Source of the DNA: Promethearchaeota archaeon
GTDB lineage: Archaea; Asgardarchaeota; Lokiarchaeia; Sigyniarchaeales; SOKP01
NCBI GenBank assembly: GCA_019058425.1
Contig: JAHPYZ010000002.1
Coordinates: 27,880-91,879 of the forward strand
Reading direction: 5' to 3'
DNA: 64,000 bases
Under the pieces are notes generated by a model. The model made no database searches, was not told the origin of the DNA, and was given only the letters and a program-made list of their open reading frames with translations. Every line of letters begins with the position of its first letter. Positions within the stretch are counted from its first letter, which is position 1. The position numbers and the translations under genes are program-made. Shown piece by piece: positions 5,784-56,682 of this stretch.

Positions 5784-5820
5784 ACTTTAAATGATTAGAA
5801 TCTGTAATTATTTTTTTCTA

Positions 5821-7502: not shown

Positions 7503-7512
7503 GGTAATAAAA

Positions 7513-8232: not shown

Positions 8233-8236
8233 TCAA

Positions 8237-8632
8237 ATGAGTATGAATAATTTAATTTTGATAACTTGCCGAACAATAAATCAAGGTGTAGCGCTTGAAG
8301 GAGGTAAAAACACTAAAGAAAATGTTCGTGCAGCGGGAATCTGTGCTTTTGACAGCGATGATTTTAAGAAATTAGATTGCCTTGTTGGGACACCAGTCAA
8401 GGTTATCACTGATTTTGGTGAAGTTATAGTATATTCTACGATTTCCGAAGAAGGGCCACATCCAGGAATAATTTTTATCCCAATGGGTCCTTGGGCAAAT
8501 CAAGTTGTCAATCCTGATTCACAATCATGTGGTACTCCCACTTATAAAGGAATGAAAGCACAAGTAGAAGTAATTTCTAGTGGAAAAGTTTTGGATGCTG
8601 TAGAATTAATTAATTTATTAAAGGAGGCTTAA
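8237..8632 (+). CDS. fwdD: Formylmethanofuran dehydrogenase subunit D
   Basis: 131 aa. LITCRTINQGVALEGGK ... IFIPMGPWANQVVNPDSQSCGTPTYKGMKAQVE matches the FwdD/molybdopterin-dinucleotide-binding barrel pattern. AAGGAGG RBS lies upstream. Confidence 0.8.
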   Translation: MSMNNLILITCRTINQGVALEGGKNTKENVRAAGICAFDSDDFKKLDCLVGTPVKVITDFGEVIVYSTISEEGPHPGIIFIPMGPWANQVVNPDSQSCGTPTYKGMKAQVEVISSGKVLDAVELINLLKEA

Positions 8633-8635
8633 AAA

Positions 8636-9961: not shown

Positions 9962-9965
9962 AAAG

Positions 9966-27443: not shown

Positions 27444-27559
27444 AAAATACACCTTTTTTGGCAACACTCTCTTTTTAGATAAAATTAATATGAGATTATA
27501 TCAATTAATTATCAAACTTATTTTAAATTGTATAAACTTTCATTATTTCTATTCCTTAT

Positions 27560-37999: not shown

Positions 38000-38935
38000 A
38001 TGGGAAAAAAATTGGATTCAAATAACTCCGATCAGAAAAACGAATCTGATAACAAGGTAATTAAAGAAGAAATTAGCTTAAATTTACGCTTATGGCTTCC
38101 TTTATTCTATGTTATTTACTATTGCTCCTTTTTAATACCAGGTATCCTTTTCATGTTGTTCATAATGTTTTTTTATTTACCTCATTTCTTAGAAGTAAGA
38201 AATTTTATTCTACTTTTTACTAATATACCATCTCTTATAGCCTCTTTAACAATACCCGTCGTGATAATTATTTGTTATTTAATCCATTTATTTATTGTTG
38301 CATTAATTACTCGATTATTTTGGAGTTACTCGGAAAGAAAATCTCCATCTAAATCTGGAATAATACCACGGAACATCCCAAGCAAAACATTAAATTTTTA
38401 TCACTTTCGCAGTTTTATTATTAAATATCCTAAAAATGCATTTTCTCGTGGTCCATTTCCCTGGTTATCAAAATGGATGTTTAACTTTGTGGGTACAAAT
38501 CAAATAGGAAAAGGATCTGTGATTGAAGAACAAGTTGCCGGAGATAGATTTGTAGAAGTCGGAGAAAATTCCTATATCGGAGCAAATCCAGGAATAAGTT
38601 CACATTCTGTGGATGGAGTCTTTGGTAATATTTCATTTGCAAAAGTAAAAATCGGAAATAATGTTACTGCTGCAGCTTTTAATTGTTTTGCTCCAGGTAT
38701 AGAATCTGGAGATAATTCTTGGTGGTTGCCGATGACGGGAGCAACAAAATATAATATTATGAAAGGAAATAATTACTATTACGGCACACCTCTTAGAAAA
38801 ATCTTTAAAAAAAGAGTAATGGAATATCTTCAAATTACAGAAGAGGATTTGAAAAGAGGAGAAGAATTATCAAATACTTGGAAATTGTCAAAAAGGAAAA
38901 AAAGCAGGAGAGATAAAGTAAATGGATTTAAATGA
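38000..38935 (+). CDS. TM-hairpin + hexapeptide (left-handed beta-helix) module protein, module type 1 of 3 (Pls/PosA C-terminal-repeat-like)
   Basis: 311 aa. Two long TM helices are followed by RKSPSKSGIIPRNIPSKTLNFYHFRSF...GPFPWLSKWMFNFVGTNQIGKGS. Hexapeptide-periodic VEVGENSYIGANPGISSHSVDGVFGNISFAKVKIGNNVTAAA comes next. It aligns with the N-terminal halves of 48758-50587 and 51086-52939. Confidence 0.6.
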   Translation: MGKKLDSNNSDQKNESDNKVIKEEISLNLRLWLPLFYVIYYCSFLIPGILFMLFIMFFYLPHFLEVRNFILLFTNIPSLIASLTIPVVIIICYLIHLFIVALITRLFWSYSERKSPSKSGIIPRNIPSKTLNFYHFRSFIIKYPKNAFSRGPFPWLSKWMFNFVGTNQIGKGSVIEEQVAGDRFVEVGENSYIGANPGISSHSVDGVFGNISFAKVKIGNNVTAAAFNCFAPGIESGDNSWWLPMTGATKYNIMKGNNYYYGTPLRKIFKKRVMEYLQITEEDLKRGEELSNTWKLSKRKKSRRDKVNGFK

Positions 38936-39803
38936 AAAAACTGAAAAGACTGTGGATTATACTATTGATTTTGTTACTACTAGTGCGATAAGTAAAATAG
39001 GTTATAAATTTCTTGCTTTATATATTCCTATCTTATGGGTATCTGGATATATGACATTTGCAGTGTTTTTCGATGTATCACATTACATACCATGGTATAT
39101 AAATATGTTTTTAATACCTGTATGGTTATTCGTTTTATATTTTATTTTCGTTTTTGGGATAACCATTTTTACAAAAGCTTTTTTACTCATTATAAATATG
39201 GTTCATAAGCCTAAGGAGGGCGTTTTTAGAGCAGAAGAAGGCAATAAAGACTACGAATTCTGGCGAGTGAGGGTGGAACTTAAAAAACTTGTCTTTTGGT
39301 TTATGAATAATGGCCCCATAACTTGGATAGTTATGTGGGGTTTTAGATGGATGGGTATTAAGGTGGATTTTTCAAGTCACATGCAGGATGCTTGGGCGGA
39401 TGGAGGATTTATAGAATTCGGTAGAAATGTTACTGTAGGTCAAGGAGCCGTGGTTATGAGCTCAATGGTAGTAGGAAAATATTTGATAATTAAAAAAATA
39501 GATCTGGGAGACTACAATGTTGTTGGAGGTTTATCACTTATTTCCCCAGGTACTATTATGGGTAAAGAATCTATAATTGGAGCTTTTTCTGGTACAATCC
39601 CAAATCAAAAATTAGAGTCTGGATGGATTTATTTAGGTCCAAATAACGCTAGGAAATTAAAACCAAACAAATTTGCAGAACAGAGAAGAGATCAAATATA
39701 TCAGAAGCATGTTGATGATGAAGTGAAATATAAAGTTACACAAGAAGTGAATATTGAAGATGATAAGAAAGATCTTATAAATAATCATGGTGAGGATGGA
39801 TAA
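38922..39803 (+). CDS. TM-hairpin + hexapeptide beta-helix module protein, module type 2 of 3
   Basis: 293 aa. TM hairpin, then HKPKEGVFRAEEGNKDYEFWRVR..., then IEFGRNVTVGQGAVVMSSMVVGKYLIIKKIDLGDYNVVGGLSLISPGTIMGKESIIGAFS. The start overlaps the module-1 gene by 14 nt. It aligns with the C-terminal halves of the 609- and 617-aa proteins. Confidence 0.6.
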   Translation: MDLNEKTEKTVDYTIDFVTTSAISKIGYKFLALYIPILWVSGYMTFAVFFDVSHYIPWYINMFLIPVWLFVLYFIFVFGITIFTKAFLLIINMVHKPKEGVFRAEEGNKDYEFWRVRVELKKLVFWFMNNGPITWIVMWGFRWMGIKVDFSSHMQDAWADGGFIEFGRNVTVGQGAVVMSSMVVGKYLIIKKIDLGDYNVVGGLSLISPGTIMGKESIIGAFSGTIPNQKLESGWIYLGPNNARKLKPNKFAEQRRDQIYQKHVDDEVKYKVTQEVNIEDDKKDLINNHGEDG

Positions 39804-39805
39804 TT

Positions 39806-40654
39806 ATGTCAGTACCTTCAAGTTTAAAAGTAGGTCCTAATACAACCCTTATTTTAGCAAAAAAGAGATATCTTATTTTCTATATTTTCCTTGTCTGGAT
39901 TAGTCTGTTTTCAATTCAATTTGAGTTTTGGGTGCTCTGGATACTCTATGAACCAAAATTTATTCACTTTTTATTGTTCCTTCCTCTAGTTATTTTTCTA
40001 ATGTATCTTTCTTCAATATTAGTATCATTAATCTTCGCTAAAATAATTCTTATTATTGTGAATCTTATTCATAAACCACGTGAAGGAGTATTTTTAAGGC
40101 ATCAATCAGATAAAGATTATAGATATTGGAGTCTAAGAAGTACTATCAAGAAATGGCCAATATGGTTATCTCATAAATTTCCTTTTCCTTTTATGGATAA
40201 TCTATGTTTCAAGATGTTCGGAGTACGAACTAAACTTTCCAGTTCATTATTTGAAGGATGGGTAGATACTGAATTTATCGAATTTGGAAAAAATGTTGTG
40301 GTAGGACAAGGAGCTATTGTTCAATCTGCAATTATAGTTGGAAATCTGTTTATTATAAGAAAAACTATCATTGAGGATAATGTTGTAATTGGTGCTCAAT
40401 CTGTTGTTATGCCTGGCACACATATGAAAAGAAATTCAATTCTAGGAGGGCATTCCCTAACCACAGTAGGTCAAGAACTTGAAGAATGTTTCATCTATTT
40501 AGGAGCTCCGGCAAAAAAATTCAAAAAAAATGTATTCCTTGAAGATGGATTGGAAGAAATCATACAAGAGCAAGGAGAAAAGCAAATTAAATCAAAAGTT
40601 AGTGTTGAAGAATTATACACGGTACGCAAAGATAAAGAAACTAAGGTCGAATGA
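39806..40654 (+). CDS. TM-hairpin + hexapeptide beta-helix module protein, module type 3 of 3
   Basis: 282 aa. TM hairpin, then IHKPREGVFLRHQSDKDYRYWSLRS..., then IEFGKNVVVGQGAIVQSAIIVGNLFIIRKTIIEDNVVIGAQSVVMPGTHM. It starts 3 nt after module 2. Ortholog-like paralog at 52936-53886. Confidence 0.6.
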   Translation: MSVPSSLKVGPNTTLILAKKRYLIFYIFLVWISLFSIQFEFWVLWILYEPKFIHFLLFLPLVIFLMYLSSILVSLIFAKIILIIVNLIHKPREGVFLRHQSDKDYRYWSLRSTIKKWPIWLSHKFPFPFMDNLCFKMFGVRTKLSSSLFEGWVDTEFIEFGKNVVVGQGAIVQSAIIVGNLFIIRKTIIEDNVVIGAQSVVMPGTHMKRNSILGGHSLTTVGQELEECFIYLGAPAKKFKKNVFLEDGLEEIIQEQGEKQIKSKVSVEELYTVRKDKETKVE

Positions 40655-41515: not shown

Positions 41516-42421
41516 ATGAAAATTGGATATCCTTGTATAAATTTAACTTTAAATTGCAGAAGTAGTAGAACTTTTCGCTTGGAAAATTATTCAGAAGAAA
41601 GACTTATAGGAACTATTGATAATAACTTAAAATGTTTATCTAAAATCTTAAAATTTAACACTGAAAATAATCTTCTGTTTTTTCGAATTACTTCGGATTT
41701 GATACCATTTGCTTCACATCCAATCATGAAATTCAATTGGCAAAATTATTTCAAATCTAAATTCAAAGAAATTGGGTCATATATAAAAAAGAAATCAATG
41801 CGGATCAGCATGCATCCTGGGCAATATACTGTACTTAACTCAAAAAATAAAAATGTGGTTCAAAATAGCATAAAAGAATTAAAATACCATGTAGAAGTTT
41901 TAGAGGTATTAGGTTTAAATTCAGAAGCGAAAGTGATAACTCATGTGGGAGGTGTTTATGGAGATAAGAAAAGCAGTATTAAACGCTTTCTCCAGATGTA
42001 TAAAACTCTCAGTGATAACATAAAGATGCATTTCATAATTGAAAATGATGATAAAAGTTATAATATAAAGGATTGCTTAAAAATCAATGACAACATAGGA
42101 ATTCCAATTGTTTTCGATTCATATCATCATTTTTGTTATAACCAAGGGGAATCTATTGAAGAGGCTATCCAACTTATCTCGAAAACTTGGAAAAAAAAAG
42201 ATGGATTACCTATTCTACATTACAGTTCTGAACATCCAATTAAGGGAAAATATAGACATGCTGATGAAATTGATATAAGTCATTTTAACAATTTTTTAAA
42301 AAAGTCATGTAATTATGATTTTGATCTAATGTTAGAAGTTAAAAATAAAGAAAAAAGTGCTATTCTTGCCAGAGAGCAATTAATTAATGATGTAAGATTT
42401 AAAACAAATTCAGAACTATGA
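41516..42421 (+). CDS. uvdE: UV-damage endonuclease (UvdE/Uve1 family)
   Basis: 301 aa. MKIGYPCINLTL...RTFRL...NL..L..IL.FN.ENNLLFFRITSDLIPFASHP and later HVGG..GDK / FDSYHH blocks are typical of UvdE TIM-barrel endonucleases. Confidence 0.75.
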   Translation: MKIGYPCINLTLNCRSSRTFRLENYSEERLIGTIDNNLKCLSKILKFNTENNLLFFRITSDLIPFASHPIMKFNWQNYFKSKFKEIGSYIKKKSMRISMHPGQYTVLNSKNKNVVQNSIKELKYHVEVLEVLGLNSEAKVITHVGGVYGDKKSSIKRFLQMYKTLSDNIKMHFIIENDDKSYNIKDCLKINDNIGIPIVFDSYHHFCYNQGESIEEAIQLISKTWKKKDGLPILHYSSEHPIKGKYRHADEIDISHFNNFLKKSCNYDFDLMLEVKNKEKSAILAREQLINDVRFKTNSEL

Positions 42422-42464: not shown

Positions 42465-42938
42465 ATGATGAAAGTTATTAAATTACCTAAAATGGAAGAA
42501 AGGGAGATATTAGAAGCGATAAATTCACAAAATTTGTGTAGAATCGCTTTTATAGATGGTGATTATCCTTATATTGCTCCATTTCAATATATTTGTATAA
42601 ATAATGAGTTATATTTTCATTTTACGGATTATGGTAAAAAAAAGGAGATTATTTCAAAAAATACTAATGTATGTGTCTCAATAGAAAGATTTGAAACAGA
42701 TCTTAGTAGTTATTATTTTATATCGATGCAAGGTAAATTGGAATTAGTTGAAAATACAGATTTGAAAACGAAAGTCATCTTTCAAATGAAAAATTCTGCG
42801 GGAAGTAGTTATTCAGAGAATTTTCTTTCAGCGCATGGTTTTGATAAGAATCTTGGTTGGGAAGGATTTATAGTCAAAAATCAACTCATTTACAAACTTT
42901 CTCAATCAAGAGATCCAATTGGATTAAAGTCTATTTAA
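42465..42938 (+). CDS. Pyridoxamine-5'-phosphate-oxidase-like (split-barrel) flavin-binding protein
   Basis: 157 aa. LCRIAFIDGDYPYIAPFQYICINNELYFHFTDYGKKKEI matches the PNPOx-like (Pyridox_ox_2) N-terminal pattern. Confidence 0.6.
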   Translation: MMKVIKLPKMEEREILEAINSQNLCRIAFIDGDYPYIAPFQYICINNELYFHFTDYGKKKEIISKNTNVCVSIERFETDLSSYYFISMQGKLELVENTDLKTKVIFQMKNSAGSSYSENFLSAHGFDKNLGWEGFIVKNQLIYKLSQSRDPIGLKSI

Positions 42939-43004
42939 AATTACTTTGATTTCTTAATTTGGTTAATAGTTTAAAATGTTTTTAAAAAGAATTTATTGAT
43001 TTGG

Positions 43005-43057
43005 AAAAGTTTGGCTAACTTTTGGCAATAAAATCTAACATTTATCATTTTATTCCC
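43005..43057 (-). promoter_or_regulatory. Two consecutive hairpins in the 3' UTR of the TGA-containing redoxin gene (candidate SECIS and/or terminator)
   Basis: RNA sense: GGGAAUAAAAU[GAUAAAUGUUAG]AUUUUAUUGCC (43057-43024; 8 A-U pairs, a G-G mismatch, then 2 G-C pairs; 12-nt loop). It starts 7 nt after the stop and is immediately followed by AAAAGUU[AGCCA]AACUUUU (43023-43005). Structure is seen by eye only and I cannot match it to a SECIS consensus. Confidence 0.25.
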
Positions 43058-43063
43058 TCCAAA

Positions 43064-43543
43064 TCATTGATTTTTATTAATTTCTTCAAGAACTTGTAAT
43101 ATTTCATCATTTTCTGGGATATCATGCATATTCTTGCCATAATAAGCATATTGTATTATTCCTTTTTTGTCAATGACTAATAGTCCAGGCATTCGACCAA
43201 GTTTTATCCACCTTGTTTCTTGTTTCAACATCTCAGCAACTGATTTTGATTGGTCGTAAAATATAGCATATTTTCGTGCATATTTCTGCTCCATTTTTTT
43301 AGCATTTTTTTCATTATCTACTAAAATTGGATAGAGAAATCCATCTAATTGTTCAAATTTCTCAATATCTCTTCTTAATCTCGCAGCATGCCATCGGCAG
43401 AAAGGTCAATTAATATCTCTAAATAATATAATAACTACATTCTTTTTATTTTCGAAATCTCGTATGTTAATTGTTTCTCCTCTAGAATTTGGCAAACTAA
43501 ATTCACTTATTTTAGATCCCACTACATTAAATTTATCTTTCAT
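43064..43543 (-). CDS. Thioredoxin-fold redoxin/peroxiredoxin-like protein with in-frame TGA at the catalytic Cys position (probable selenoprotein, UPFC motif)
   Basis: A 160-codon frame from ATG 43543 (GAAGG RBS about 10 nt upstream) reads MKDKFNVVGSKISEFSLPNSRGETINIRDFENKKNVVIILFRDIN[TGA]PFCRWHAARL...LGRMPGLLVIDKKGIIQYAYYG.... The TGA (43406-43408) replaces the first Cys of the F...W-C-P-F-C redox motif. The track shows only the 76-aa part downstream of the TGA. Confidence 0.65.
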
Positions 43544-43575
43544 ATTTATTTACCTTCTTTTTTTAAATTTAAATT

Positions 43576-44041
43576 TTAGATTTCCTTAAGAATCTTAAAG
43601 ATTTCTTCAATTGTAGGTATATCATCCATATAATCACTGTAATAGGCGTATTTTATAATTCCCTTTTTATCGATTATGAGTAATGCGGGCATCCTACCCA
43701 ATTTAAAAGGTTTTACTTCCTGTTTTAATATCTTATTTACTTTCTTTTTACGATCATAAAAAAATTGGATATTTTTTTGCAAAATTGGCTTCAAATTTCT
43801 TAGCACTTTCATAGTCATCTGGTAGAATTGCATATAATAAAGCATTGTAATTCTGAGACTTTTCAAACATATTACTTAACTTTTGAGCATAAACTTTAGC
43901 ATATGGTCAACTTTTACTTCGAAATAAAACTATTACTACACTACTGCCCATATAGTCTCGAATAATCCTAGTTTCACCTCTTGAGTTCGGTAATTCGAAT
44001 TCTTTTATTTTAGAACCTACTAAATTAAATTTATCTTTCAT
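43576..44041 (-). pseudogene. Paralogous redoxin gene with TGA at the same position (UPYA) plus a frameshift in an A7/T7 run; pseudogene, sequencing error or recoding
   Basis: From ATG 44041: MKDKFNLVGSKIKEFELPNSRGETRIIRDYMGSSVVIVLFRSKS[TGA 43907-43909]PYAKVYAQKL...EANFAKKYPIF. The frame then shifts by 1 at the homopolymer 43758-43764 to continue YDRKKKVNKILKQEVKPFKLGRMPALLIIDKKGIIKYAYY.... The span is 466 nt, not a multiple of 3. Confidence 0.5.
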
Positions 44042-44276
44042 TATGCTCACATAATATCAATTTGTAGATTTATCAAATAAGAATTAAATATTATTCATAT
44101 ATATTCCTTTATATTAATTCTAAATGTGTTTAATATTATTAATCTGGATATAGATCGAATTCTCTATATTTTATTAATTAATTTCATTTTTTTTTTCAAA
44201 TTTTAAAGAATAGAATGTCATAAATTTATAAATTTAAGTAACATAAGTTAAAATCTAATTTCACATATTTTGAATT

Positions 44277-45116
44277 ATGAATTCTATTGAAAAAACAGAA
44301 GAAGGTTGGTTAATTCCAAAATCTCCTATTACTTTCGATTACCTAAAAAAATTCAATCGGAATATGGGTATTTTACATTTGATACAAGGGTTACTAATGG
44401 TGCTTTTTGGGTTTTTACCTCAACTAGCTTTTTCCAGAGACATTTACACTTTTTACCTCAAGTTTGAACTCGTTGGTCCAGATTTCGTTATTTCACCAAA
44501 TCCTACAGTGTTGTTTGTCTTTAGTGCTTTAGGGGCATTTGTTGGCTCTTTTCTATTAATGTCTGCCATCGCTCATTTGTTAATAGCTTATCCGCTAAAT
44601 AAAAGCTATGTTAGAAATTTAAAAAGAGGAATAAACAAAGTACGTTGGTTTGAGTACGCCCTATCAAGTTCCGTAATGATTTTCTTAATAGCTATCTTTT
44701 TTGGAGTCTGGGATTTTTGGTCATTGTTTATGATTTTTATTTCTAATGCCTTGATGAATATGTTTGGCTTAATGATGGAATCATATAATGTATATACAAG
44801 AGAAAGAAATGAGAAGGTTAAATGGGGACCATATTATTTAGGTGTAATCGCAGGAGCCGTTCCTTGGATTGTTATTACTGCATATTTTATAAGTACTGAA
44901 ACCATTGGAGGAGAAGTACCACTATTTGTCTATTTGATTTATGGAATCGAACTATTTTTCTTTAACACATTCGCAATCAATATGATACTGCAATATAAAG
45001 GAGTGGGAAAATGGAAGGATTATCTATACGGTGAAAGAGTATATCAACTACTAAGTCTTGTATCTAAAACCTTTTTAGCATGGCTCGTATTTGCTGGAGT
45101 ATTTAGTCCTACATAA
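44277..45116 (+). CDS. Heliorhodopsin
   Basis: 279 aa with 7 TM helices. Strong colinear similarity, from my memory of heliorhodopsin 48C12: KKFNRNMGILHLIQ, AIAHLLI, KVRWFEYALSSSVMIFLIA, GAVPWIV, FFFNTFAINMILQYKGVGKWKDYLYGERVYQLLSLVSKTFLAWLVFAG. The Schiff-base Lys candidate is K264 (nt 45066-45068) and the counterion-position Glu is E126. Confidence 0.85.
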   Translation: MNSIEKTEEGWLIPKSPITFDYLKKFNRNMGILHLIQGLLMVLFGFLPQLAFSRDIYTFYLKFELVGPDFVISPNPTVLFVFSALGAFVGSFLLMSAIAHLLIAYPLNKSYVRNLKRGINKVRWFEYALSSSVMIFLIAIFFGVWDFWSLFMIFISNALMNMFGLMMESYNVYTRERNEKVKWGPYYLGVIAGAVPWIVITAYFISTETIGGEVPLFVYLIYGIELFFFNTFAINMILQYKGVGKWKDYLYGERVYQLLSLVSKTFLAWLVFAGVFSPT

Positions 45117-45154: not shown

Positions 45155-46795
45155 TTATACATCTAATACATAAATCGGCCACTTTTTCAAAATACCTTTG
45201 GGATTTTTCCCGTTTCGGACTTTATTTAACATTACAGATCTGGTTGCTAAGAAGTCTACCGGATTATTTTTGATTAATTCTAATTTAATATCTCTGTTTA
45301 AAATGGCTCGTTTAAAATTTTCATTTTTAATACACTTTACCAATATCTCACGATAATCTTGTAAATTTGAACATTTTGTATTGTCACTCGAGTAAAGATA
45401 TAATTTCTTTGCGTTATTCGTAGATCTAATATGGTTTATTAAAAGAAGTGAGTCAATATATAAAGCACAATTCTCTTTCAAGCAATTTAATAGTAACCGT
45501 GGATTATTAATATCGAAATTTGGAAAAGTAAAATAATCACCCGCATAGACTTTATAATTCGATGGTAAACTAATCTCACTTGATACATTTATTGGATATT
45601 TTAGTTGAAAACTTGATCTTAAGATTTTTCCGTCAATTTGAGGAAGCCCATTCTGATTTAAAAGAGAGATTACATCCCCTATATTTATATTAATTAATAC
45701 TCCTGTGGTATGAAGCCGAGAAACATAAAGCTTACCAAATTTATTTTGTGATCTAGAAACTGGTTCTCTCTTTCCATCATATTCTATTGCAGGTAAGGTT
45801 AAGGGAAAGATGTACATTCTATTAGAACGAGATATTTCAAAATCTCCCGCGTTAATACTTGCCGCAAATGGCCCAATTTCAGAAGCGACATAGAGATTAG
45901 TAAATTTTTCTGTGCCTTCTTCCCATTTCATAAATTTACGAATTAATAACCAATCTGATTTTGATAACGAACTAATACTAAAAATTAAAGTTGCCCTCGA
46001 TATTTTTTTTGATAATTCTTTCTGAATTTGTTTTGAAGTATTATACAATCCATTTTTTTCTATTTTCAACAAGAGATCTTGAAGTTTAGGATTTTTATTT
46101 TTTTTAATTAAATCAAGTGATCTTCTTATCCCCTCCTGGAGTCTATTAATATCTGCCCATCCTAAAATTGTTATAGCGGGAGCAGAAATAACTGAGATAT
46201 TATTCATCGTTAGAATTTGAGCTATAATCGCTAAATTCCTTGAATTTTTATATTCATAGAACAAATAAGATTTTGGTTTAATAATAGAAAGCATGATCCT
46301 TTGAGAAAATTCTGAAGAATAGAGTGAGACGTACTTCTTTGACTCAAAAGTACTAATTCCATCAAATTTCAATCTCGAGGGTACGAAAATTATAGCAGAT
46401 GATTTTGAATCTAATCCACTGGATTCAAAAATTGCTTGCATACCAGGAGCCCATTGCCTCTTTACAATATCTTTTGCCATATGAAACCATTTTAGCATAG
46501 ATAACTTACTGTTTGTTGTCCCTGATGTATGACAAAAGATTAGGGGATCATTTTCTTGTTTTTTTTTCAAGAAATCTTCTAAATCTATTGAGAAACTTCT
46601 TGATTCAGTGGTATCAGACTTTAATCTTTCGAAAATGTCTTCAACAGACGATAATCCCGAGAATTTTAAAGATATTTCCTCATATTCTTCCCGAGAACTA
46701 ATATCAAGCCATTTCTTCCAATCTGTTCTTTGAATATTGGAGAAATTATTATCGAAGATTCTTTGAGTCTCTAAATCAAAATCAAACGCATTCAA
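45155..46795 (-). CDS. Divergent adenylate-forming (ANL / PaaK-F390-synthetase / GH3-like) enzyme, putative
   Basis: 546 aa. FCHTSGTTNSKLSMLKW resembles the (T/S)SGTTG.PK P-loop motif. LYVASEIGP, NIGDVISL and PQIDGKILRS sit where motifs A5, A7 and A8 would be. All motifs are degenerate, so the call is tentative. Confidence 0.35.
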   Translation of the reverse strand: MNAFDFDLETQRIFDNNFSNIQRTDWKKWLDISSREEYEEISLKFSGLSSVEDIFERLKSDTTESRSFSIDLEDFLKKKQENDPLIFCHTSGTTNSKLSMLKWFHMAKDIVKRQWAPGMQAIFESSGLDSKSSAIIFVPSRLKFDGISTFESKKYVSLYSSEFSQRIMLSIIKPKSYLFYEYKNSRNLAIIAQILTMNNISVISAPAITILGWADINRLQEGIRRSLDLIKKNKNPKLQDLLLKIEKNGLYNTSKQIQKELSKKISRATLIFSISSLSKSDWLLIRKFMKWEEGTEKFTNLYVASEIGPFAASINAGDFEISRSNRMYIFPLTLPAIEYDGKREPVSRSQNKFGKLYVSRLHTTGVLININIGDVISLLNQNGLPQIDGKILRSSFQLKYPINVSSEISLPSNYKVYAGDYFTFPNFDINNPRLLLNCLKENCALYIDSLLLINHIRSTNNAKKLYLYSSDNTKCSNLQDYREILVKCIKNENFKRAILNRDIKLELIKNNPVDFLATRSVMLNKVRNGKNPKGILKKWPIYVLDV

Positions 46796-46852: not shown

Positions 46853-47401
46853 TTAAAATCTTATAGAATGCGGAATAATACCATAAAGACCAGTCTCGGA
46901 ATCTAGAAATAATTGTATGTTTGGAGGAAAATATGTGAATATTGCAAATAATAACCCAAATCCAATGAATATCAACAAAGAAGTAATCATATACCACTTA
47001 GATAATTGGTCTTTTGTCATAATTTTATAACTTACATATTGACCTATTATAACTCCGAATACAAAACTTAATATATCTATAATGAGTAATTCCGTTCCGA
47101 GTATAGCGGTATAAGAATAAAAAATAATCAGTATTGTACTAATAGCTATTAAAAATGAAATGGTTTTTCCTATAATGAAATTTTTCGCTTCTTCTTTAAT
47201 GAAATTATATTCTATTATTGAAAATATGATTAATGGCCAATATGGTAATTTGAGATGCTCCCACACACTTTCATTGACGGGAAAGATCGCGCCTAAAGGA
47301 CTCCAGTAATTCAATATTGCGAACATAAAATGGAATAAAGCACCAAGTATAACAATGACAAGTATTCCTAATGATTCCCATTTTAATATTGTATTTTTCA
47401 T
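46853..47401 (-). CDS. Small multi-pass membrane protein, unknown function
   Basis: 182 aa with 5 TM helices and no diagnostic motif. Confidence 0.4.
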   Translation of the reverse strand: MKNTILKWESLGILVIVILGALFHFMFAILNYWSPLGAIFPVNESVWEHLKLPYWPLIIFSIIEYNFIKEEAKNFIIGKTISFLIAISTILIIFYSYTAILGTELLIIDILSFVFGVIIGQYVSYKIMTKDQLSKWYMITSLLIFIGFGLLFAIFTYFPPNIQLFLDSETGLYGIIPHSIRF

Positions 47402-48757: not shown

Positions 48758-50587
48758 ATGGGGATGACAGAATTAACTTCAATTGAGACTGTCCCAGAGA
48801 AGCACTCTATTCGAGAGGAAATTGATACTCAATATTTTTGGTATCTATTTGTTCTTTTCGCAATATTTTTAGCATCATTAGTTATTCCTGCTATTATATT
48901 CATTTTTTATATGATTTTCTTCTTTATACCTAATTTTTTAGAAGTTCCAAGTTTTTTAGCTCTTTTTACACAATTTAAACCTTTATTAGCCTTAGTCTCT
49001 ATGCCTTTAGTCCTAATCGGTTGTTATCTTATTCGTTTATATTTTATTGGATTAATAACACGTGGTTTTAAGTTTTTAACCGAAAAAAGATCTCCTAGTA
49101 AAGAAGGTATTATTCCAAGAAATTTTCCCAGCAAAACCTTAAGTTACTATCAAATCAGAGGGTTTATGATAAAATATGGAAAGAATGCGTTCATGAAAGG
49201 ACCTTTTCCATGGCTTGGCAATTGGTATTTTAATTTTATAGGTGCTAGTAAAATTGGAAAAGGCACTACATTTGAAGAATCCCCCAGTAATGATAAATTT
49301 ATTGAAGTAGGAGAGAATTCCTATATTGGAGTTAATTCATCTTTAGCTAGTCACGTTATTGAGGGAATTTTTGGAAACATTTCATATTTTAAAGTAAAAA
49401 CTGGAAATAATTTTACTGCTGCAGCCAGTAATGTTTTAGGTCCTGGTTCTGAGGCATATGATAATTCTTATTTACTTCCTTTAGCAGCAACCCCAAAGCA
49501 TAGTGTAATTAAAGGAAATAATTATTATTGGGGTATGCCTTTAAGGAAAATTTTCAGAAAAAAGATAATGAATTTTTTAAGATTAACACCAAAAGATTTA
49601 GAGAGAGGTGAAAATGTTGGAGGTTTTCGGGACAAAAAATTGTTAAAAAAATTAAAAACTAGAAAACTCTCAAAACACCTTGAATCTGAGACAAAAATAC
49701 AACAAGAAAACACAGAATCTAGAGAGAGTCTTATAAACCATAATAATATAGATGAAGAAAATCTAAAAATTGATTTTACTACAAGTAGTGCGATTTCAAG
49801 AGTAAATATTAGATTTTTAGTTTTATATATCCCAATTTTTTGGTTATCTGGGATGTTAGATACTGCAATCTTTTATTCTTTCACTTCATATGTTCACAAT
49901 TGGATATTAATGGCCTTTTTTCTACCTGCTATATTTATTATTATGTGGTTTGTTTTCATTTTTGGGTGTTTTATTTTCAGTAAACTTTTCCTAGTCTTAA
50001 TAAATTTAATACATAAGCCAAAAGAAGGAATCTTCAAGGCGGAAAAGGGTGATTCTGATTTTGAGTTTTGGTGTTTACGAACTGAATTAAAAAAGATAGC
50101 ATTTTGGCTTATAAGAAATTGGCCGCTTCCATGGATGGATATTTTAGCCTTTAAATGGTTTGGAATTAAAATGAAATTATCAAGTACCTTATGGGATTCC
50201 TACACTGATGGTGAGTTTATTCAGTTTGGACGTAGAGTAATAGTTGGACAAGGTGCTAGTGTTATGTCTTCAATGGTAATAGGTAAATATTTACTGATTA
50301 AGAAAGTCTTCTTTGATGATTATGTTGTTATTGGAGGGCAGAGTATCATCGCCCCAGGAACGATTGTTGGTAAGGATTCTGTGGTTGGGGCTCTCAGTAC
50401 GACTACTTATAATCAAGTTCTTGAACCAGGTTGGATTTATTTTGGAATTCCAGTAATTAAATTAAAACCAAATAAGTATGCTGAGGGAAGAAGGGAAATT
50501 CTTATGAAAAGAGATGTTGATGGGGAGAAAAAGTTTGAAATAAAGTATGATGTCAATGTCGATGAAGATAAGAAAGATATCGCTTAG
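48758..50587 (+). CDS. Fused module-1 + module-2 TM/hexapeptide beta-helix protein (locus 2)
   Basis: 609 aa. Residues 1-300 are colinear with 38000-38935 (KRSPSKEGIIPRNFPSKTLSYYQIRGF...GPFPWLGNWYFNFIGASKIGKG). Residues 330-609 are colinear with 38922-39803 (IHKPKEGIFKAEKGDSDFEFW...IQFGRRVIVGQGASVMSSMVIGKYLLIKK). No module-3 gene follows. Confidence 0.6.
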   Translation: MGMTELTSIETVPEKHSIREEIDTQYFWYLFVLFAIFLASLVIPAIIFIFYMIFFFIPNFLEVPSFLALFTQFKPLLALVSMPLVLIGCYLIRLYFIGLITRGFKFLTEKRSPSKEGIIPRNFPSKTLSYYQIRGFMIKYGKNAFMKGPFPWLGNWYFNFIGASKIGKGTTFEESPSNDKFIEVGENSYIGVNSSLASHVIEGIFGNISYFKVKTGNNFTAAASNVLGPGSEAYDNSYLLPLAATPKHSVIKGNNYYWGMPLRKIFRKKIMNFLRLTPKDLERGENVGGFRDKKLLKKLKTRKLSKHLESETKIQQENTESRESLINHNNIDEENLKIDFTTSSAISRVNIRFLVLYIPIFWLSGMLDTAIFYSFTSYVHNWILMAFFLPAIFIIMWFVFIFGCFIFSKLFLVLINLIHKPKEGIFKAEKGDSDFEFWCLRTELKKIAFWLIRNWPLPWMDILAFKWFGIKMKLSSTLWDSYTDGEFIQFGRRVIVGQGASVMSSMVIGKYLLIKKVFFDDYVVIGGQSIIAPGTIVGKDSVVGALSTTTYNQVLEPGWIYFGIPVIKLKPNKYAEGRREILMKRDVDGEKKFEIKYDVNVDEDKKDIA

Positions 50588-50605
50588 GTTTTCATTAATT
50601 TTTTA

Positions 50606-50998
50606 CTATATCTTTAAATTGAGTTGTTTTTTCAAGAATTTCTTCAAATTTTTACAAGTATTATTCAATACAGCTTTTTCTTTATAAAATAGATGAGTTC
50701 GAGGACAATACTTATCATATATACATTTTTGTTTTTCAAAATCAAAAATTAGAGGATAAAATCTACAACCTTGTGGCCTATATTCATAAATATTACATAT
50801 TTTTGAATTTTTCTCAAAAAAAATACAATTACCTTCAATATTTTTCAATTGAAAAAGGTTATCTTCATTTTTAAAATAAAATGCTTGATTAGGTAAATAA
50901 TTTTGGCATTTTCTTATTATTAAGCTAATATCATCTTCGGAGACAATCATCTCTGTCTCTATACAACACTTTCCGCAATCCTTACATTTATCAGACAT
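50606..50998 (-). CDS. YkgJ/UPF0153-type CxxCxxCC Cys-cluster protein
   Basis: 130 aa. CKDCGKCC near the N-terminus plus later Cys residues (CIFF, CNIYEYRPQGCRFYP) fit the putative Zn/Fe-chelating YkgJ family. Confidence 0.55.
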   Translation of the reverse strand: MSDKCKDCGKCCIETEMIVSEDDISLIIRKCQNYLPNQAFYFKNEDNLFQLKNIEGNCIFFEKNSKICNIYEYRPQGCRFYPLIFDFEKQKCIYDKYCPRTHLFYKEKAVLNNTCKNLKKFLKKQLNLKI

Positions 50999-51085
50999 TA
51001 TGATTTGTTCTTTTTATCTGAGACTAATACTTTTAAAAGAAAAAAAAATATCTATTAAATTATAATAAGTATCAATTGTTTTTTA

Positions 51086-52939
51086 ATGAAGAAAAAATTA
51101 CTGAAACCTAGCGAAGAAGTTATAAAAGAAGAAGTAAGTCTTCAATTTCATTTATATATTATAATATTCGCTATAATCTATTATGTTTCATGGGTTATTC
51201 CAGGATTTGTTTTTTGGCTATATTTTTTCTTTCCCTTTCGAATATTTTTTCTAGAAAATATTGGATTTTTTTCTTTATTTACTAATCTTAGTTCTCTAAT
51301 AAGCTTGTTGATTATGCCGTTGGTGATTATTGGCTGCTATTTGCTTCATTTATTTTTTCTTGGATTAATTACACGATTAATTTGGGGAATTACAGAAAGG
51401 ATTTCTCCATCCAAATCAGGAATAATACCAAGAAATATTAAAAGTAGGGCTGCCAATTATTACCATATACGAAGTTTCATGATAAAATATGGAAAGAATA
51501 CATTTACAAAAGGAATGTTTCCATGGCTCTCGAATTGGTTTTTTAATTTTGTAGGAACAAACAAAATAGGAAAAGGCTCTACTTTTGAGGAATCTGTAGG
51601 AAATGATAAATTTGTTGAAGTAGGAGAGAATTGCTATTTCGGAGTTAATTCTACTTTAGCAAGTCATCTGATCCAAGGAGTCTTTGGAAACATATCATAT
51701 TTTAAAATTAATGTTGGAAATAATGTTACTTTTGCTGCAATGTGCGGAGTAGGTCCTGGGTCAGAACTTTATGATAATGCTTATCTATTACCGCTAGCTT
51801 CAACTCCAAAACATAGTGTGATGAAAGGAAGTAATTACTATTTTGGAATGCCAATGAGGAAAATCTTTAGGAAGAAAATAATGAATTATCTTGATGTAGT
51901 TCCAAAAGATTTGGAAATGAGTGATAATATTCAGGGGTATTCTGATAAGAAATTATTAAAAGAAATAAAAGAAAAAAAAGGGGTTTTAAAAACTTTTGAT
52001 GAAAAACTCGATAAAGAACAATTATTAAGTAATCAAGAAGATGAAGTAGTAAATATAGAAAATCTAACTGAACAAGATTTAAGGATTGATTTCACCACTA
52101 GTTCAGCAATAAGTAGGGTAAATGCAAAATTCTTACTTGTTTATATACCTATTTTTTGGCTATCAGGACTAGTAGTAACAATAATTTGGTATTGGTACTC
52201 TAGAACACAAGTTGCAACAAACTTTCAATGGTCTTTTTTCTTTGCTTTCCCACTTGTTTTGTTCGGATTAACGTATATCTTTATTTTAGGGTGTCTTCTT
52301 TTTAGTAAGCTTTTTTTGATATTAGTCAACTTAATTCACAGACCTAAGGAGGGGGTTTTCAAAGCTGCGATTGGGAATACTGATTTTGAGTTTTGGCAGT
52401 TGAGAACTGAGTTAAAGAAGATTCCTTTATGGTTTTTTCGGAATTCACCATTTCCATGGACTGATGTTTTAGCTTTCAAACAAATGGGGGTTAATATGGA
52501 TTTTTCTAGCCATTTAGCTGACACATGGTGTGACTCGGAATTTATTAAATTTGGTCGGAAAGTTATGATTGGGCAAGGAGCTACTTTAATGTCTTCAATG
52601 GTAGTTGGTAAATATTTATTAATTAAGAAAGTATTTTTTGAGGACTATGTTATGGTTGGAGGACATACTACAATATCCCCTGGAACCGTAATAGGGAAAG
52701 AAACTGTTATTGGTGCTCTCAGTACAAGTACTTATGAACAGGTTTTAGAACCAGCATGGATATACTTCGGAATTCCAGCTATGAAAATGAAAGAAAACAA
52801 GTATGCTGAAGAGAGAAGAGATATAATAATAAAACGAGAAGTTGCAGATGCTAAAAAGACTGAATTAATACATGATGTAAATATTGATGAAGATAAAAAA
52901 AAATTAATCAAATTAGAAAAAGAGAGTGAGGAAAAATGA
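51086..52939 (+). CDS. Fused module-1 + module-2 TM/hexapeptide beta-helix protein (locus 3)
   Basis: 617 aa, colinear with 48758-50587 over its full length (ERISPSKSGIIPRNIKSRAANYYHIRSF...; IHRPKEGVFKAAIGNTDFEFW...IKFGRKVMIGQGATLMSSMVVGKYLLIKK). Confidence 0.6.
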   Translation: MKKKLLKPSEEVIKEEVSLQFHLYIIIFAIIYYVSWVIPGFVFWLYFFFPFRIFFLENIGFFSLFTNLSSLISLLIMPLVIIGCYLLHLFFLGLITRLIWGITERISPSKSGIIPRNIKSRAANYYHIRSFMIKYGKNTFTKGMFPWLSNWFFNFVGTNKIGKGSTFEESVGNDKFVEVGENCYFGVNSTLASHLIQGVFGNISYFKINVGNNVTFAAMCGVGPGSELYDNAYLLPLASTPKHSVMKGSNYYFGMPMRKIFRKKIMNYLDVVPKDLEMSDNIQGYSDKKLLKEIKEKKGVLKTFDEKLDKEQLLSNQEDEVVNIENLTEQDLRIDFTTSSAISRVNAKFLLVYIPIFWLSGLVVTIIWYWYSRTQVATNFQWSFFFAFPLVLFGLTYIFILGCLLFSKLFLILVNLIHRPKEGVFKAAIGNTDFEFWQLRTELKKIPLWFFRNSPFPWTDVLAFKQMGVNMDFSSHLADTWCDSEFIKFGRKVMIGQGATLMSSMVVGKYLLIKKVFFEDYVMVGGHTTISPGTVIGKETVIGALSTSTYEQVLEPAWIYFGIPAMKMKENKYAEERRDIIIKREVADAKKTELIHDVNIDEDKKKLIKLEKESEEK

Positions 52940-53886
52940 GTGTTCCAAATACAATGAGAATCGGACCTTTTGTTACAAATGTTTTAGTAAAAAAAAGTTA
53001 TTTAATTTTATATATTTTTATTATATGGGCAAGTCTCATTCCAATCCTTTTGGAATTCTGGATTTATTGGCGATTTTTATGGAATGCAGTGAGACCTGTC
53101 CATTTTTATACATTTCTTCCACTCTTAGCTTTTCTGATGTATATTACTCTCGTTTTTTCTGCAATTATTTTTGCTAAGATCATATTGCTGGTCGTAAATG
53201 TTATTCATAAACCCCGAGAAGGTGTTTTTTTACGAATTCCAGAGGATCAAGATTATAGATATTGGAGTCTTCGAAGTGTTATAAAGAGATGGCCAATCTG
53301 GCTCGCTCACAGATTTCCTTTCCCAGGATTTATGGATAATATTTGTTTCAAAATGTTTGGAGTGAAAACAAAGATTTCGAACTCTTTATTTGAAGGGTGG
53401 GTTGATGCTGAATTTGTAGAGTTTGGTAAAGATGTAGTAGTAGGACAAGGAGCAATTGTACAATCTGCTGTAATTATTGGTAATCTATTAATAATCAGGA
53501 AAACAATCGTTGAAGAAAATGTTAGAATAGGTTCACATGCTATAATAATGCCAGGTACACATATCGGATATAATTGTATTTTAGCAGCGAATTCAGTGAC
53601 TACAGTTGGCCAAGTTTTAGAGAGAGGTTATATTTATGCGGGAGTTCCAGCAAAGAAATTTAAGAAGAATTATTTTTTTGAAGATGGTTTAGAAGATAGA
53701 ATAGGTCATGTAGAAGATGTTGAAGCGTTAAGAGAGAAATATGAAGAAATATATACTAAAAGGCATGATCAAATTACCCGTAAAGACCGCAGGGAAATCA
53801 AGAGAGAAAAGAAGGAAGAAGAAAAGAAGAGATTTGATATCGCCGCCGAAGAATGGGAAGAATTTGATGATGGTTTCAATATATAG
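52936..53886 (+). CDS. Module-3 TM/hexapeptide beta-helix protein (locus 3)
   Basis: 316 aa. ATGA overlap with the preceding gene. Colinear with 39806-40654 (IHKPREGVFLRIPEDQDYRYWSLRS...VEFGKDVVVGQGAIVQSAVIIGNLLIIRK). The C-terminal tail is charged. Confidence 0.6.
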   Translation: MSVPNTMRIGPFVTNVLVKKSYLILYIFIIWASLIPILLEFWIYWRFLWNAVRPVHFYTFLPLLAFLMYITLVFSAIIFAKIILLVVNVIHKPREGVFLRIPEDQDYRYWSLRSVIKRWPIWLAHRFPFPGFMDNICFKMFGVKTKISNSLFEGWVDAEFVEFGKDVVVGQGAIVQSAVIIGNLLIIRKTIVEENVRIGSHAIIMPGTHIGYNCILAANSVTTVGQVLERGYIYAGVPAKKFKKNYFFEDGLEDRIGHVEDVEALREKYEEIYTKRHDQITRKDRREIKREKKEEEKKRFDIAAEEWEEFDDGFNI

Positions 53887-54088: not shown

Positions 54089-54796
54089 TTATTTTAATAT
54101 GAAGTACATTCTTCTATTGTTTTTACCTTTATTGACTGTTTTAGTTACCTCAATTTTGCCAATTTCTTTTAGATGATTGATATGTGTGCCTCCGTCTACT
54201 TGTTCATCGATATCTCCAATTCTAACAATTCTAAATTCTTTGATATTCTTAGGTAATCCTACAGCTAGGCGTGCTAATTCAGGTTTTCCTAAAACCTCAT
54301 CCCTAGTCATGTAATCGATAGTAGTTGGTAAGTCTTGCTCGATAATACTATTAGCTTCATCTACAAAATCTCTCAATTTTTCAGGAGAATAATCTAGCAT
54401 TGAGAAATCCATTCTTGTTTTATCCATTTCTATTTGATTCCCTGTAATTTTCGCATCAGCTCTCTTATAAAGTATATTACTAATGAGATGAGAAGCTGTA
54501 TGATATCGCATATAGGTATATCTACGTTCCCAATTGAGTTCACAATGAACCTTATCACCTTCTTTTAACCCTGACTTATCTACTTCATGACTAATATTCC
54601 CTGAAAACTTTCCAACATAAACCACCTTATACTCTTGATCATCCTTTATGATTGAGCCTTCATCCCAAGGTTGACCTCCTCCTTTAGGGTAGAAAGCAGT
54701 ATTATCTAATACCACATATTTATCATCTGTGACACTTACCACTTTCGCATTCCAGCTTTTAAGGTAAGAATCATCCATATAGAGTGCTCTAGCCAT
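54089..54796 (-). CDS. alaX: AlaX-M type alanyl-tRNA editing protein
   Basis: 235 aa with an N-terminal beta-barrel region, YHTASHL and VDGGTHINHL editing-site motifs. Confidence 0.8.
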   Translation of the reverse strand: MARALYMDDSYLKSWNAKVVSVTDDKYVVLDNTAFYPKGGGQPWDEGSIIKDDQEYKVVYVGKFSGNISHEVDKSGLKEGDKVHCELNWERRYTYMRYHTASHLISNILYKRADAKITGNQIEMDKTRMDFSMLDYSPEKLRDFVDEANSIIEQDLPTTIDYMTRDEVLGKPELARLAVGLPKNIKEFRIVRIGDIDEQVDGGTHINHLKEIGKIEVTKTVNKGKNNRRMYFILK

Positions 54797-55644: not shown

Positions 55645-56682
55645 ATGAAAGTTGTTGAAGTAGCTGGCACTAAATTTGAGGTTAAAAAAGGATTTCTTGA
55701 TTTAAGTCTTTTAGAAATAAAAAATATTAATGAAATACAAGGATTGTCAAAAATAAAAGATTTAAAGAATCTTGAATTAAGCTCAAATGATATTGGAACA
55801 GTAGAAGGGTTAGATGATTTAGCTGAGTTGGAGATTTTAAATTTGGGTAATAATAATATAATTGACATACAAGGATTAGACAATTTACAAAATCTTAAGA
55901 TTCTACATCTTATAAGCAATCGAATATCTGAAATTAAAGGATTAGAGAATTTAACAAATTTGGAGGAACTGTATCTAAGGGGAAATCAGATATCTGAGTT
56001 AAAAGGGTTAAAAGAATTAACTTCACTAATAAGATTAGATCTTTCTTGGAATGAGATTTCAGAAATAAAGGGGTTTGAAACACTAAGAAATCTCGAAGTG
56101 CTATGGATTGCGGGAAATAAGTTAGAAGAAATCAAAAATTTAGATAAATTAGAGAACTTAGAAGTATTAAATCTTGCAGGAAATCAGATTAAAAATATTG
56201 GAGGTTTAGAGAATTTAAAAAGTCTAAAAAGTCTCTATTTAAATAATAATTTAATTCAAGAAATTCATGGTTTGGATACTCAGGAAAGCTTGGAAACGTT
56301 ATGGCTCAATACCAATCACATTTCAAATATAAGAGGATTAGATAATTGCAAAAGTTTAAAAATTCTAAACCTAAAGCAAAACAACATATCTCAGATAAGA
56401 GGATTATATTCCTTAAATGAATTAGAAACACTTTTTCTTTCAGAGAATAGTATTGGTGAAATTAAAGGTCTAGAGGCATTAACTAAATTAGAAACGCTTG
56501 ATTTAGGTCAAAATCGTATAATTCAGATAAAAGGATTAGAATCTTTAATGAATTTAAAGGATTTATGGCTAGCAGATAATGTCATCCCTCAGAAAATATT
56601 GGAGGAATTAGGAGGTTTAGACTCAGGTGGATGTGCACACGATCCTTTAAAATTTGTCCAATATAGTCTTATTAATTTATAA
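55645..56682 (+). CDS. Leucine-rich repeat protein (about 14 tandem 22-residue SDS22-like LRRs)
   Basis: 345 aa with the repeating unit NLxxLxLxxNxIxxIxGLExLxxL at 66-nt DNA periodicity from about 55730 to 56590. No signal peptide or TM helix is visible. Confidence 0.85.
   Translation: MKVVEVAGTKFEVKKGFLDLSLLEIKNINEIQGLSKIKDLKNLELSSNDIGTVEGLDDLAELEILNLGNNNIIDIQGLDNLQNLKILHLISNRISEIKGLENLTNLEELYLRGNQISELKGLKELTSLIRLDLSWNEISEIKGFETLRNLEVLWIAGNKLEEIKNLDKLENLEVLNLAGNQIKNIGGLENLKSLKSLYLNNNLIQEIHGLDTQESLETLWLNTNHISNIRGLDNCKSLKILNLKQNNISQIRGLYSLNELETLFLSENSIGEIKGLEALTKLETLDLGQNRIIQIKGLESLMNLKDLWLADNVIPQKILEELGGLDSGGCAHDPLKFVQYSLINL

Follow-up and report, generated by a model that had tools for sequence, protein, structure and literature searches.

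The window analysed here, i.e., the whole 64-kb stretch (64,000 nucleotides) of contig JAHPYZ010000002.1 of a Promethearchaeota archaeon (assembly GCA_019058425.1), carries a gene for a heliorhodopsin (HeR) in a stress-gene neighbourhood. The GC content of the window is 25-35% and the composition of the HeR gene is unremarkable, while the opposite strand of its interval is stop-rich and holds no rival open reading frame (ORF). The gene and the key residues of its product, given in amino acids (aa), are the following:

44277-45116, plus strand: HeR coding sequence, ATG start, 279 aa, intact frame
Key residues of the HeR protein: H34, Q37, S96, H100, N120, R123, W124, E126 (counterion), S130/S131, N157, N161, E168, E225 (unusual), F229, Q239, E253, S260, K264 (Schiff base) and W269

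The encoded protein is a member of a known family in a known host group, and its family membership is near certain. It matched PF18761 (Pfam Heliorhodopsin) over profile positions 1-241 of 242 (E 4.8e-86; 288.5 bits, gathering score 26.7) and NF038020, the NCBIfam equivalog "heliorhodopsin HeR" (301.9 bits, cut-off 100), and HeRs were the sole matches in a sequence search of the PDB, with E values of 1e-52 for TaHeR (6is6) and 9e-40 for 48C12. The match to HeR models is far above chance. TaHeR, from the Thermoplasmatales archaeon SG8-52-1 (PDB 6is6, 7u55, 7clj), is the closest solved structure, with 45-47% identity, and the actinobacterial family founder 48C12 (PDB 6su3, 6uh3) shares 38-41% identity with the window protein.

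Residues were mapped by means of printed HMMER alignments to the solved HeR structures, taking into account a +6 offset between the 6is6 chain and native TaHeR numbering, verified on H23, E108, F203, Q213, E227 and K238. Nineteen residues discussed for 48C12 correspond one-to-one and unchanged to residues of the window HeR (H23 to H34, Q26 to Q37, S76 to S96, H80 to H100, N101 to N120, R104 to R123, W105 to W124, E107 to E126, Y108 to Y127, S112 to S131, N138 to N157, M141 to M160, E149 to E168, W173 to W197, Y226 to Y249, E230 to E253, S237 to S260, K241 to K264, and W246 to W269), whereas Q213, I142 and L202 are replaced by M236, N161 and E225, respectively. The mapped residues include the Schiff-base region and the water-filled cavity set listed by the 48C12 structure paper, all those checked being conserved, and the polar Schiff-base cavity is complete in the window HeR (H34, H100, N120, R123, Y127, E168, E253 and S260). 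Moreover, the E-S-L motif of transmembrane helix (TM) 3 and the SxxxK motif of TM7, published as HeR traits, are represented by E126/S130/L137 and S260/K264. The stretch S260-L-V-S-K264 aligns with S237/K241 of 48C12 (K238 in TaHeR) and is invariant in a 41-sequence alignment, as are K264, E126 and all the residues examined in the retinal pocket and the Schiff-base cavity.

An earlier, sequence-only reading of this DNA had pointed to three motif blocks, an intact Schiff-base lysine, a glutamate at the counterion position and two conserved histidines, and each of these was recovered. The blocks lie at residues 26-37 (FNRNMGILHLIQ, containing H34), 124-134 (WFEYALSSSVM, containing E126) and 251-274 (YGERVYQLLSLVSKTFLAWLVFAG, containing K264), and the second histidine, H100, lies within SAIAHLLIA; by the HMMER alignment K264 is homologous to K241 of 48C12, E126 is the equivalent of its E107, and H34 and H100 are those of H23 and H80. 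From these residues, the protein would be expected to bind all-trans retinal at K264.

An AlphaFold2 model built from the 41-sequence alignment (predicted local distance difference test 86.2; predicted template-modelling score 0.82) contains seven helices, at residues 20-45, 85-104, 121-141, 147-176, 184-209, 216-241 and 249-275, in agreement with the seven-TM, 279-aa protein described previously. A long beta-hairpin (residues 54-82, with strands 54-66 and 69-82) occupies the TM1-TM2 loop. In a Foldseek search of the PDB, TaHeR 6is6 was the top match (target-normalised template-modelling score 0.91, root-mean-square deviation 1.7 Å, 45% identity), followed by 48C12 (scores of 0.80-0.87), whereas type-1 rhodopsins appeared only at E values of about 1e-2 and with 10-14% identity. 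Lysine and arginine residues number 5 in the N-terminus and 6, 4 and 4 in the TM2-3, TM4-5 and TM6-7 loops (19 in sum), against 2, 0, 0 and 0 on the other side, which by the positive-inside rule predicts an inverted topology with the N-terminus inside (N-in). This orientation is a defining trait of HeRs. Curated family models, fold, lysine, counterion glutamate, histidine pair and predicted topology thus all agree with the HeR identity proposed from the letters of the DNA. Compared with TaHeR, the window HeR has in common the lysine, the glutamate and the histidine pair, as well as the methionine at the position of 48C12 Q213 and the asparagine at that of I142; it differs in E225 (I199 in TaHeR), in N157 (threonine in TaHeR), and in its longer AB-loop hairpin and longer N-terminus.

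In a collection of 5.8 billion proteins the best non-exact matches were unnamed metagenome proteins with 94% identity, and proteins with 76-78% identity carry the name "heliorhodopsin HeR [Candidatus Lokiarchaeota archaeon]", others being from Promethearchaeota. The exact HeR together with the exact 546-aa protein encoded next to it (see below) was found elsewhere on only one 4.9-kb contig (Logan assembly, run SRR14817123). Among GTDB species representatives, orthologues with 88-96% identity were located at the same locus in 10 metagenome-assembled genomes (MAGs) of Promethearchaeia/Promethearchaeota (L007-L015 and L021), a few of these bins being labelled with other Asgard names, and the HeRs of Lokiarchaeota/Promethearchaeota MAGs belong to the same clade at 76-96% identity. 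In a neighbour-joining tree rooted with 48C12 and built without viral HeR sequences, the window protein fell among archaeal HeRs, which bears out the earlier assignment; it lies inside the Promethearchaeia (Loki-type) clade, followed by other Asgard, TACK and methanogen HeRs and by TaHeR. In the accompanying table, the leucine of L046 at both histidine columns is a presumed artefact of hand-extended coordinates and was left unused.

Asgard members have been described before, since subfamily 7 comprises Asgard and TACK proteins (Kovalev et al.), HeRs are known in Heimdallarchaeia, and a published survey reports that the cultured Lokiarchaeon Ca. Prometheoarchaeum syntrophicum MK-D1, a deep-sea isolate, carries a HeR. 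A full-text literature search for a characterised Lokiarchaeial HeR found none. Across the 11 species (the window and its 10 sisters) the HeR gene showed a median pN of 0.032, a median pS of 0.445 and a dN/dS of about 0.05, and its pN/pS was the lowest among the neighbourhood genes compared (HeR 0.07; prxL 0.14; 546-aa gene 0.27; DUF6512 0.33). Such very strong purifying selection indicates that the HeR gene is in use.

The genes and elements surrounding HeR are listed below in the order of their coordinates; SECIS denotes a selenocysteine insertion sequence, Prx peroxiredoxin, PNPOx pyridoxamine-5'-phosphate oxidase, and UTR untranslated region:

41516-42421, plus strand: UvdE/UvsE UV damage endonuclease (Pfam UvdE E 8.9e-66; TIGR00629 209.7 bits, cut-off 124)
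42465-42938, plus strand: PNPOx-like split-barrel flavoprotein (PF12900), weak Nim-family similarity
42998-43066, minus strand: structured element of about 70 nt in the prxL 3' UTR, candidate SECIS-like, starting at the stop codon, which its AUGA overlaps
43064-43543, minus strand: prxL, Prx-like (AhpC/TSA, BCP-type) selenoprotein, 159 codons, divergent from HeR
43576-44050, minus strand: RdxB, tandem copy of prxL in decay, with P-Y-A after its TGA at 43907-43909
44225-44261, plus strand: conserved upstream block, with TATA-like TTTATAAA at 44225-44232 and conserved AAGTTAAAATCTAATTT at 44245-44261
45155-46795, minus strand: 546-aa soluble protein of an Asgard-only family, convergent with HeR
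46853-47401, minus strand: DUF6512 multi-pass membrane protein, beside the 546-aa gene

Within the seemingly empty 1.3 kb upstream of HeR, two tandem copies of a thioredoxin-fold gene lie on the minus strand. The first, prxL, has an in-frame TGA (selenocysteine, U) at 43406-43408, codon 46, in the context ...ILFRDIN-U-PFCRWHAARL..., giving the redox motif U-P-F-C. This TGA occupies the same codon in each of the 11 species, with the motif U-P-F/Y-C and a protein conserved on both sides, and gene callers break the gene into pieces of 45 and 76 aa. When U was replaced by C, the product matched Pfam AhpC-TSA (E 1.7e-19) and, in the PDB, BCP-type peroxiredoxins; Prx-like proteins are one of five selenoprotein families reported as widespread in Asgard archaea. 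The element downstream of prxL is also kept in 11/11 species and is predicted to fold into an outer stem, GAUUUGG/CCAAAUC, around two hairpins. Its structure rests on conservation and folding energy, with 0 compensatory pairs (the 11 species being too conserved), and the 3' GA of the SECIS core was not placed. In Lokiarchaeia stop codons have often been found to overlap the AUGA of the eukaryote-like SECIS, and the candidate element of prxL fits this published pattern because its AUGA overlaps the stop codon. No Rfam family matched anywhere in the window at gathering thresholds and, at E ≤ 10 on 42900-44300, Rfam gave chance-level matches only and no SECIS family.

The second copy, RdxB, has lost the resolving cysteine (alanine instead), is frameshifted by +1 within a T7 run near 43765, and leaves no space for a SECIS; it is probably a pseudogene, i.e., a decaying duplicate. 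Its sequence is identical on the Logan contig (L001), which makes an assembly error less likely. With respect to HeR itself, the TATA-like TTTATAAA lies 45-52 nt before the ATG in the upstream alignment of the 11 species, and we infer that the block 44225-44261 comprises HeR's own promoter and 5' leader, AT-rich motifs being poorly informative in a genome of 29% GC. Since the next downstream gene is convergent, HeR is probably monocistronic.

Synteny was followed by tblastn of the window against the 10 sister species. The core order prxL (minus), HeR (plus), 546-aa gene (minus) and DUF6512 (minus) was kept wherever the contig reaches: the prxL-HeR pair is present in 10/10 sisters, nine contigs continue beyond HeR and all have the 546-aa gene, and eight have DUF6512. 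This strict divergent pairing of prxL and HeR may be previously unreported. In eight sisters (L008 at 9473-9874 on the plus strand; L009, L010, L012-L015 and L021) a gene for a 133-aa DUF1761 membrane protein stands between prxL and HeR, about 126 nt upstream of HeR and on the same strand; the window, L007 and L011 lack this gene, which elsewhere occupies the slot of RdxB. UvdE and the PNPOx-like gene are both found in 5/11 species, the latter additionally in L007 and L021, and L021 retains a remnant of UvdE. In the relatives with 79% identity (L002/L003), HeR sits in the same backbone without any of the island genes.

Outside the Asgard archaea, a PNPOx-like gene (PF12900) is the immediate neighbour of HeR at no fewer than seven loci, six from Bathyarchaeia and one from a Methanobacteriaceae genome (L041, L058, L061, L062, L064, L065 and L079), at a spacing of about 70-320 nt, mostly divergent and once convergent, which makes it the phylogenetically broadest HeR neighbour in this analysis. 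Furthermore, three loci of Bathyarchaeia have DUF6512 in the vicinity of HeR, and one non-Asgard locus (L080) has UvdE there. These observations agree with previous descriptions, where AhpC/TSA, photolyase and pyridoxamine-5'-phosphate oxidase genes were recurrent beside HeRs (Chazan et al.), and redox genes near HeRs have prompted the published hypothesis of a photo-oxidative-stress sensor. Another archaeal sediment lineage, Thermoprofundales subgroup E, has a cluster of HeR, crt genes, PhrB and UvsE that was read as a light-stress sensor; UvsE/UvdE is common to both loci, whereas the window lacks carotenoid genes and photolyase, and has the Prx-like selenoprotein and Asgard-only genes.

Regarding the convergent neighbour, the 546-aa protein had no Pfam match even at E ≤ 10, no NCBIfam match and no PDB sequence match. 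Its 314 homologues are all "hypothetical proteins" of Asgard MAGs, and the DUF6512 gene always follows. The motifs HTSGTTNSK, YVASEIGP, IGDVISL and IDGKILRS suggest that it may be an adenylate-forming enzyme. The 546-aa protein and DUF6512 were also considered as HeR-specific partners, a proposal weakened by the presence of both in the same backbone without HeR (L088) and of the 546-aa gene beside UvdE (L089).

Taken as a whole, the reading that we favour, and that we regard as fairly probable, is that the window HeR binds retinal and acts as a slow-cycling photosensor or regulatory helper with a link to protection against UV and oxidative stress. All-trans retinal would be attached to K264, the chromophore coming from the surroundings or from a pathway not encoded in the window. 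Light would isomerise the retinal, and the Schiff-base proton would enter the cytoplasmic cavity and stay within the protein; a long-lived intermediate would then alter the cytoplasmic surface and so modulate one or more partner proteins. The role would accordingly be that of a photosensor or "regulatory helper" and not of an energy-harvesting pump. Because the island holds the Prx-like selenoprotein, UvdE and the PNPOx-like flavoprotein, the output is most likely tied to protection against UV and photo-oxidative damage. Experiments on other HeRs have demonstrated that glutamine synthetase, photolyase and an ABC transporter can be regulated by them, proton transport has been shown for viral HeRs, and TaHeR, the closest solved relative, has been described as non-transporting. 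The previous statement that the physiological role of HeRs is unresolved therefore stands in part only, since individual HeRs have roles that were shown by these experiments.

Several observations weigh against the proposed photosensor. None of the shown HeR partners (glutamine synthetase, photolyase, the ABC transporter OmrDE) is encoded adjacent to the window HeR, and stress-gene families were equally common beside proton-pump rhodopsins and thus not specific to HeRs (Chazan et al.). The linkage with the island is loose, since L088 carries DUF6512, the 546-aa gene, DUF1761 (beside the 546-aa gene), PNPOx and UvdE without HeR, and in L089 the 546-aa gene is convergent with UvdE, again without HeR; in addition, the more distant Loki-clade HeRs (68-80% identity) have unrelated neighbourhoods. 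The carboxylate of E225 stands in a half of the protein that is fully hydrophobic in non-transporting HeRs, which makes a non-transporting character less certain. Moreover, the relatives with 79% identity (L002/L003) come from lightless sediment of IODP Hole U1379B, 2-9 m below the seafloor at a water depth of 127 m. It has been argued that rhodopsin-bearing Asgard archaea live mainly in the lit top layer and are then buried, and burial from a lit surface fits the adjoining UV endonuclease UvdE. Finally, Pfam scans covered all 57 window ORFs of at least 100 aa, with the unannotated ones rescanned at E ≤ 10, as well as a membrane-protein ORF truncated by the 3' end of the window and a selection of small ORFs in gaps, and they returned no carotenoid, lycopene-cyclase or beta-carotene-dioxygenase/retinal families in the 64 kb. 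The sequence-only reading had likewise seen no blh/brp or crt genes in the window and had taken the chromophore source as an open question; the absence is real and is no peculiarity of this locus. A lateral fenestration reportedly proposed to capture external retinal is part of the TaHeR structure, and the 48C12 paper notes its presence in both the 48C12 and TaHeR structures. According to published work, HeR genes usually have no retinal genes nearby: blh is rare near HeRs and rare also in genomes where a HeR is the only rhodopsin, for which an unidentified pathway was suggested (Chazan, Rozenberg et al.).

The residue E225 brings in the first of the alternatives, namely that the window HeR transports protons under light gating, as a channel or an inward pump similar to the viral V2HeR3, with E225 and the Schiff base forming the gate of a proton path through the normally hydrophobic extracellular half. 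TM6 reads Y-G-I-E225-L-F-F-F229-N, and E225 corresponds to TaHeR I199 and 48C12 L202 in an alignment that is ungapped to the invariant FFN.FAINM.LQYK block; it thus aligns without gaps with V2HeR3 E191, which also corresponds to TaHeR I199. In an eLife study of viral HeRs, E191 forms a gate with the Schiff base, the exchange E191Q abolishes the photocurrent, and the residue is named a hallmark of ion-transporting HeRs. Q239 and E253 of the window HeR stand at the positions of E/Q205 and E215, so that the TM6 glutamate and the residues at 205 and 215 are common to the window HeR and V2HeR3-type HeRs. Among 133 representatives of 50%-identity clusters this column contained L 30, Y 27, I 20, M 14, T 9, E 8, V 7 and Q 6, glutamate thus being a minority state (8/133), and yet it is fixed in the Loki clade, while sister archaeal groups have tyrosine: the 41-sequence alignment has glutamate in 14 proteins (Loki clade), glutamine in four (a few relatives) and tyrosine in 23 (TACK/methanogen-type), and glutamate was reported in viral subfamily 2 and tyrosine in archaeal subfamilies 7-9 (Kovalev et al.). 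Furthermore, Glu225 covaries perfectly with a second polar residue, N161 (asparagine in 14/14 of the glutamate group, isoleucine in 23/23 of the tyrosine group), and N157, N161 and E225 form a polar pocket in a half that is wholly hydrophobic in both structurally solved non-transporting HeRs. Nevertheless, the same eLife study found E191 essential but not sufficient, W195 and E/Q205 being needed as well, and EhHeR and McHeR possess the glutamate and do not transport. The window HeR has F229 in place of W195, as non-transporting HeRs do (phenylalanine in 41/41 relatives), and Q239 and E253 agree with the consensus of HeRs at large and are therefore uninformative. The window protein is archaeal and phylogenetically remote from the distant viral and algal (haptophyte) clade, as far as a tree without viral sequences can tell, and its gene is cellular and surrounded by stress genes, whereas the flanks of viral HeR genes are not conserved. 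Position 161 is that of 48C12 I142, near the beta-ionone ring, which makes colour tuning equally possible, and the E225/N161 pair may serve in colour tuning, as a protonatable switch or within a proton path. On balance, we judge a V2HeR3-like transporter unlikely; a broader proposal, that Lokiarchaeial HeRs are a distinct functional subclass in which E225/N161 and N157 make the extracellular half a proton path or a protonatable switch, appears similarly doubtful.

The dark provenance of the relatives also invites the idea of a light-independent role (lipid- or fatty-acid-related, or as a scaffold), with or without chromophore. In its favour are the syntenic relatives with 79% identity from below the seafloor together with the HeR of the deep-sea MK-D1, the window without retinal or carotenoid genes, strong purifying selection, which implies that the protein is used, and the 546-aa neighbour as a candidate adenylate-forming enzyme; in addition, lipids occupy the fenestration of crystallised HeRs, for which a role in lipid remodelling has been proposed. 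Nonetheless, the invariance of K264, E126 and the residues examined in the retinal pocket and Schiff-base cavity across 41 sequences is difficult to account for unless a retinal Schiff base is formed, the sediment MAGs may stem from cells buried from a lit surface, and the neighbouring UvdE is sensible only under UV exposure. To our knowledge, no rhodopsin functions without a chromophore, and a light-independent role has only a slim chance of being right. The absence of retinal genes and the decayed RdxB next door could likewise suggest a decaying relic, and a mis-assigned type-1 rhodopsin or schizorhodopsin was considered alongside it. Both are refuted and have next to no probability, the relic by the intact frame and the dN/dS of about 0.05 over 11 species, and the mis-assignment by full-length matches to HeR models, by the fold, which leaves type-1 rhodopsins at E values of about 1e-2 and 10-14% identity, and by the predicted N-in topology. 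The photosensor linked to UV and oxidative stress thus remains our preferred reading.

Elsewhere in the window, a second HeR was suspected in the first ORF, which also has 279 aa, and this ORF is actually a thiamine pyrophosphate (TPP) enzyme, similar to the beta subunit of 2-oxoacid:ferredoxin oxidoreductase. Arrays of hexapeptide-repeat (left-handed beta-helix) paralogues at 38000-40654 (311, 293 and 282 aa) and 48758-53886 on the plus strand (609, 617 and 316 aa) flank the HeR island and are syntenic in all sister genomes, with a CxxCxxCC gene interleaved; by tblastn, the long proteins resemble fusions of short ones. A TIR-domain protein (2955-3878, plus strand) lies between two paralogues of 360-380 aa with weak matches to prokaryotic RING fingers (3875-5017 and 5821-6903, both on the minus strand), and this TIR/RING-like group (2955-6903) may be a defence or signalling module. 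A formylmethanofuran/formate dehydrogenase-like operon (7236-10817, plus strand) encodes ferredoxin-like 4Fe-4S proteins, a molybdopterin-dinucleotide-binding subunit, a molybdopterin oxidoreductase subunit and a GXGXG protein; the gene for FdhD follows at 12688-13503 (plus strand). Two free-standing AlaX-like genes (alanyl-tRNA synthetase editing domain) were found at 26274-27467 and 54089-54796, both on the minus strand, and a 345-aa protein consisting almost entirely of leucine-rich repeats (55645-56682, plus strand; LRR_4 E 1.5e-50) lies beside glutamate dehydrogenase, in a position kept in the sister genomes.

In brief, as a family assignment the gain is modest, given that Asgard HeRs are known and close relatives are already annotated as such. 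What the locus offers is a handle on HeR function in Lokiarchaeia, namely a well-defined clade of 11 species with a fixed locus and a dN/dS of about 0.05. A conserved photoreceptor gene beside UvdE and a selenoprotein Prx in archaea of dark, anoxic sediments raises the question of where and when these cells met light and oxygen. Moreover, a Loki clade with a glutamate that is necessary for transport in viral HeRs provides a case in which a transport determinant may be set against colour tuning in a cellular HeR. If the less probable proposal of a distinct functional subclass were true, this would be the first proton-moving HeR of a cellular prokaryote, or a light/redox sensor wired to a divergent selenoprotein Prx, operating in the anaerobic sediment archaea closest to eukaryotes.

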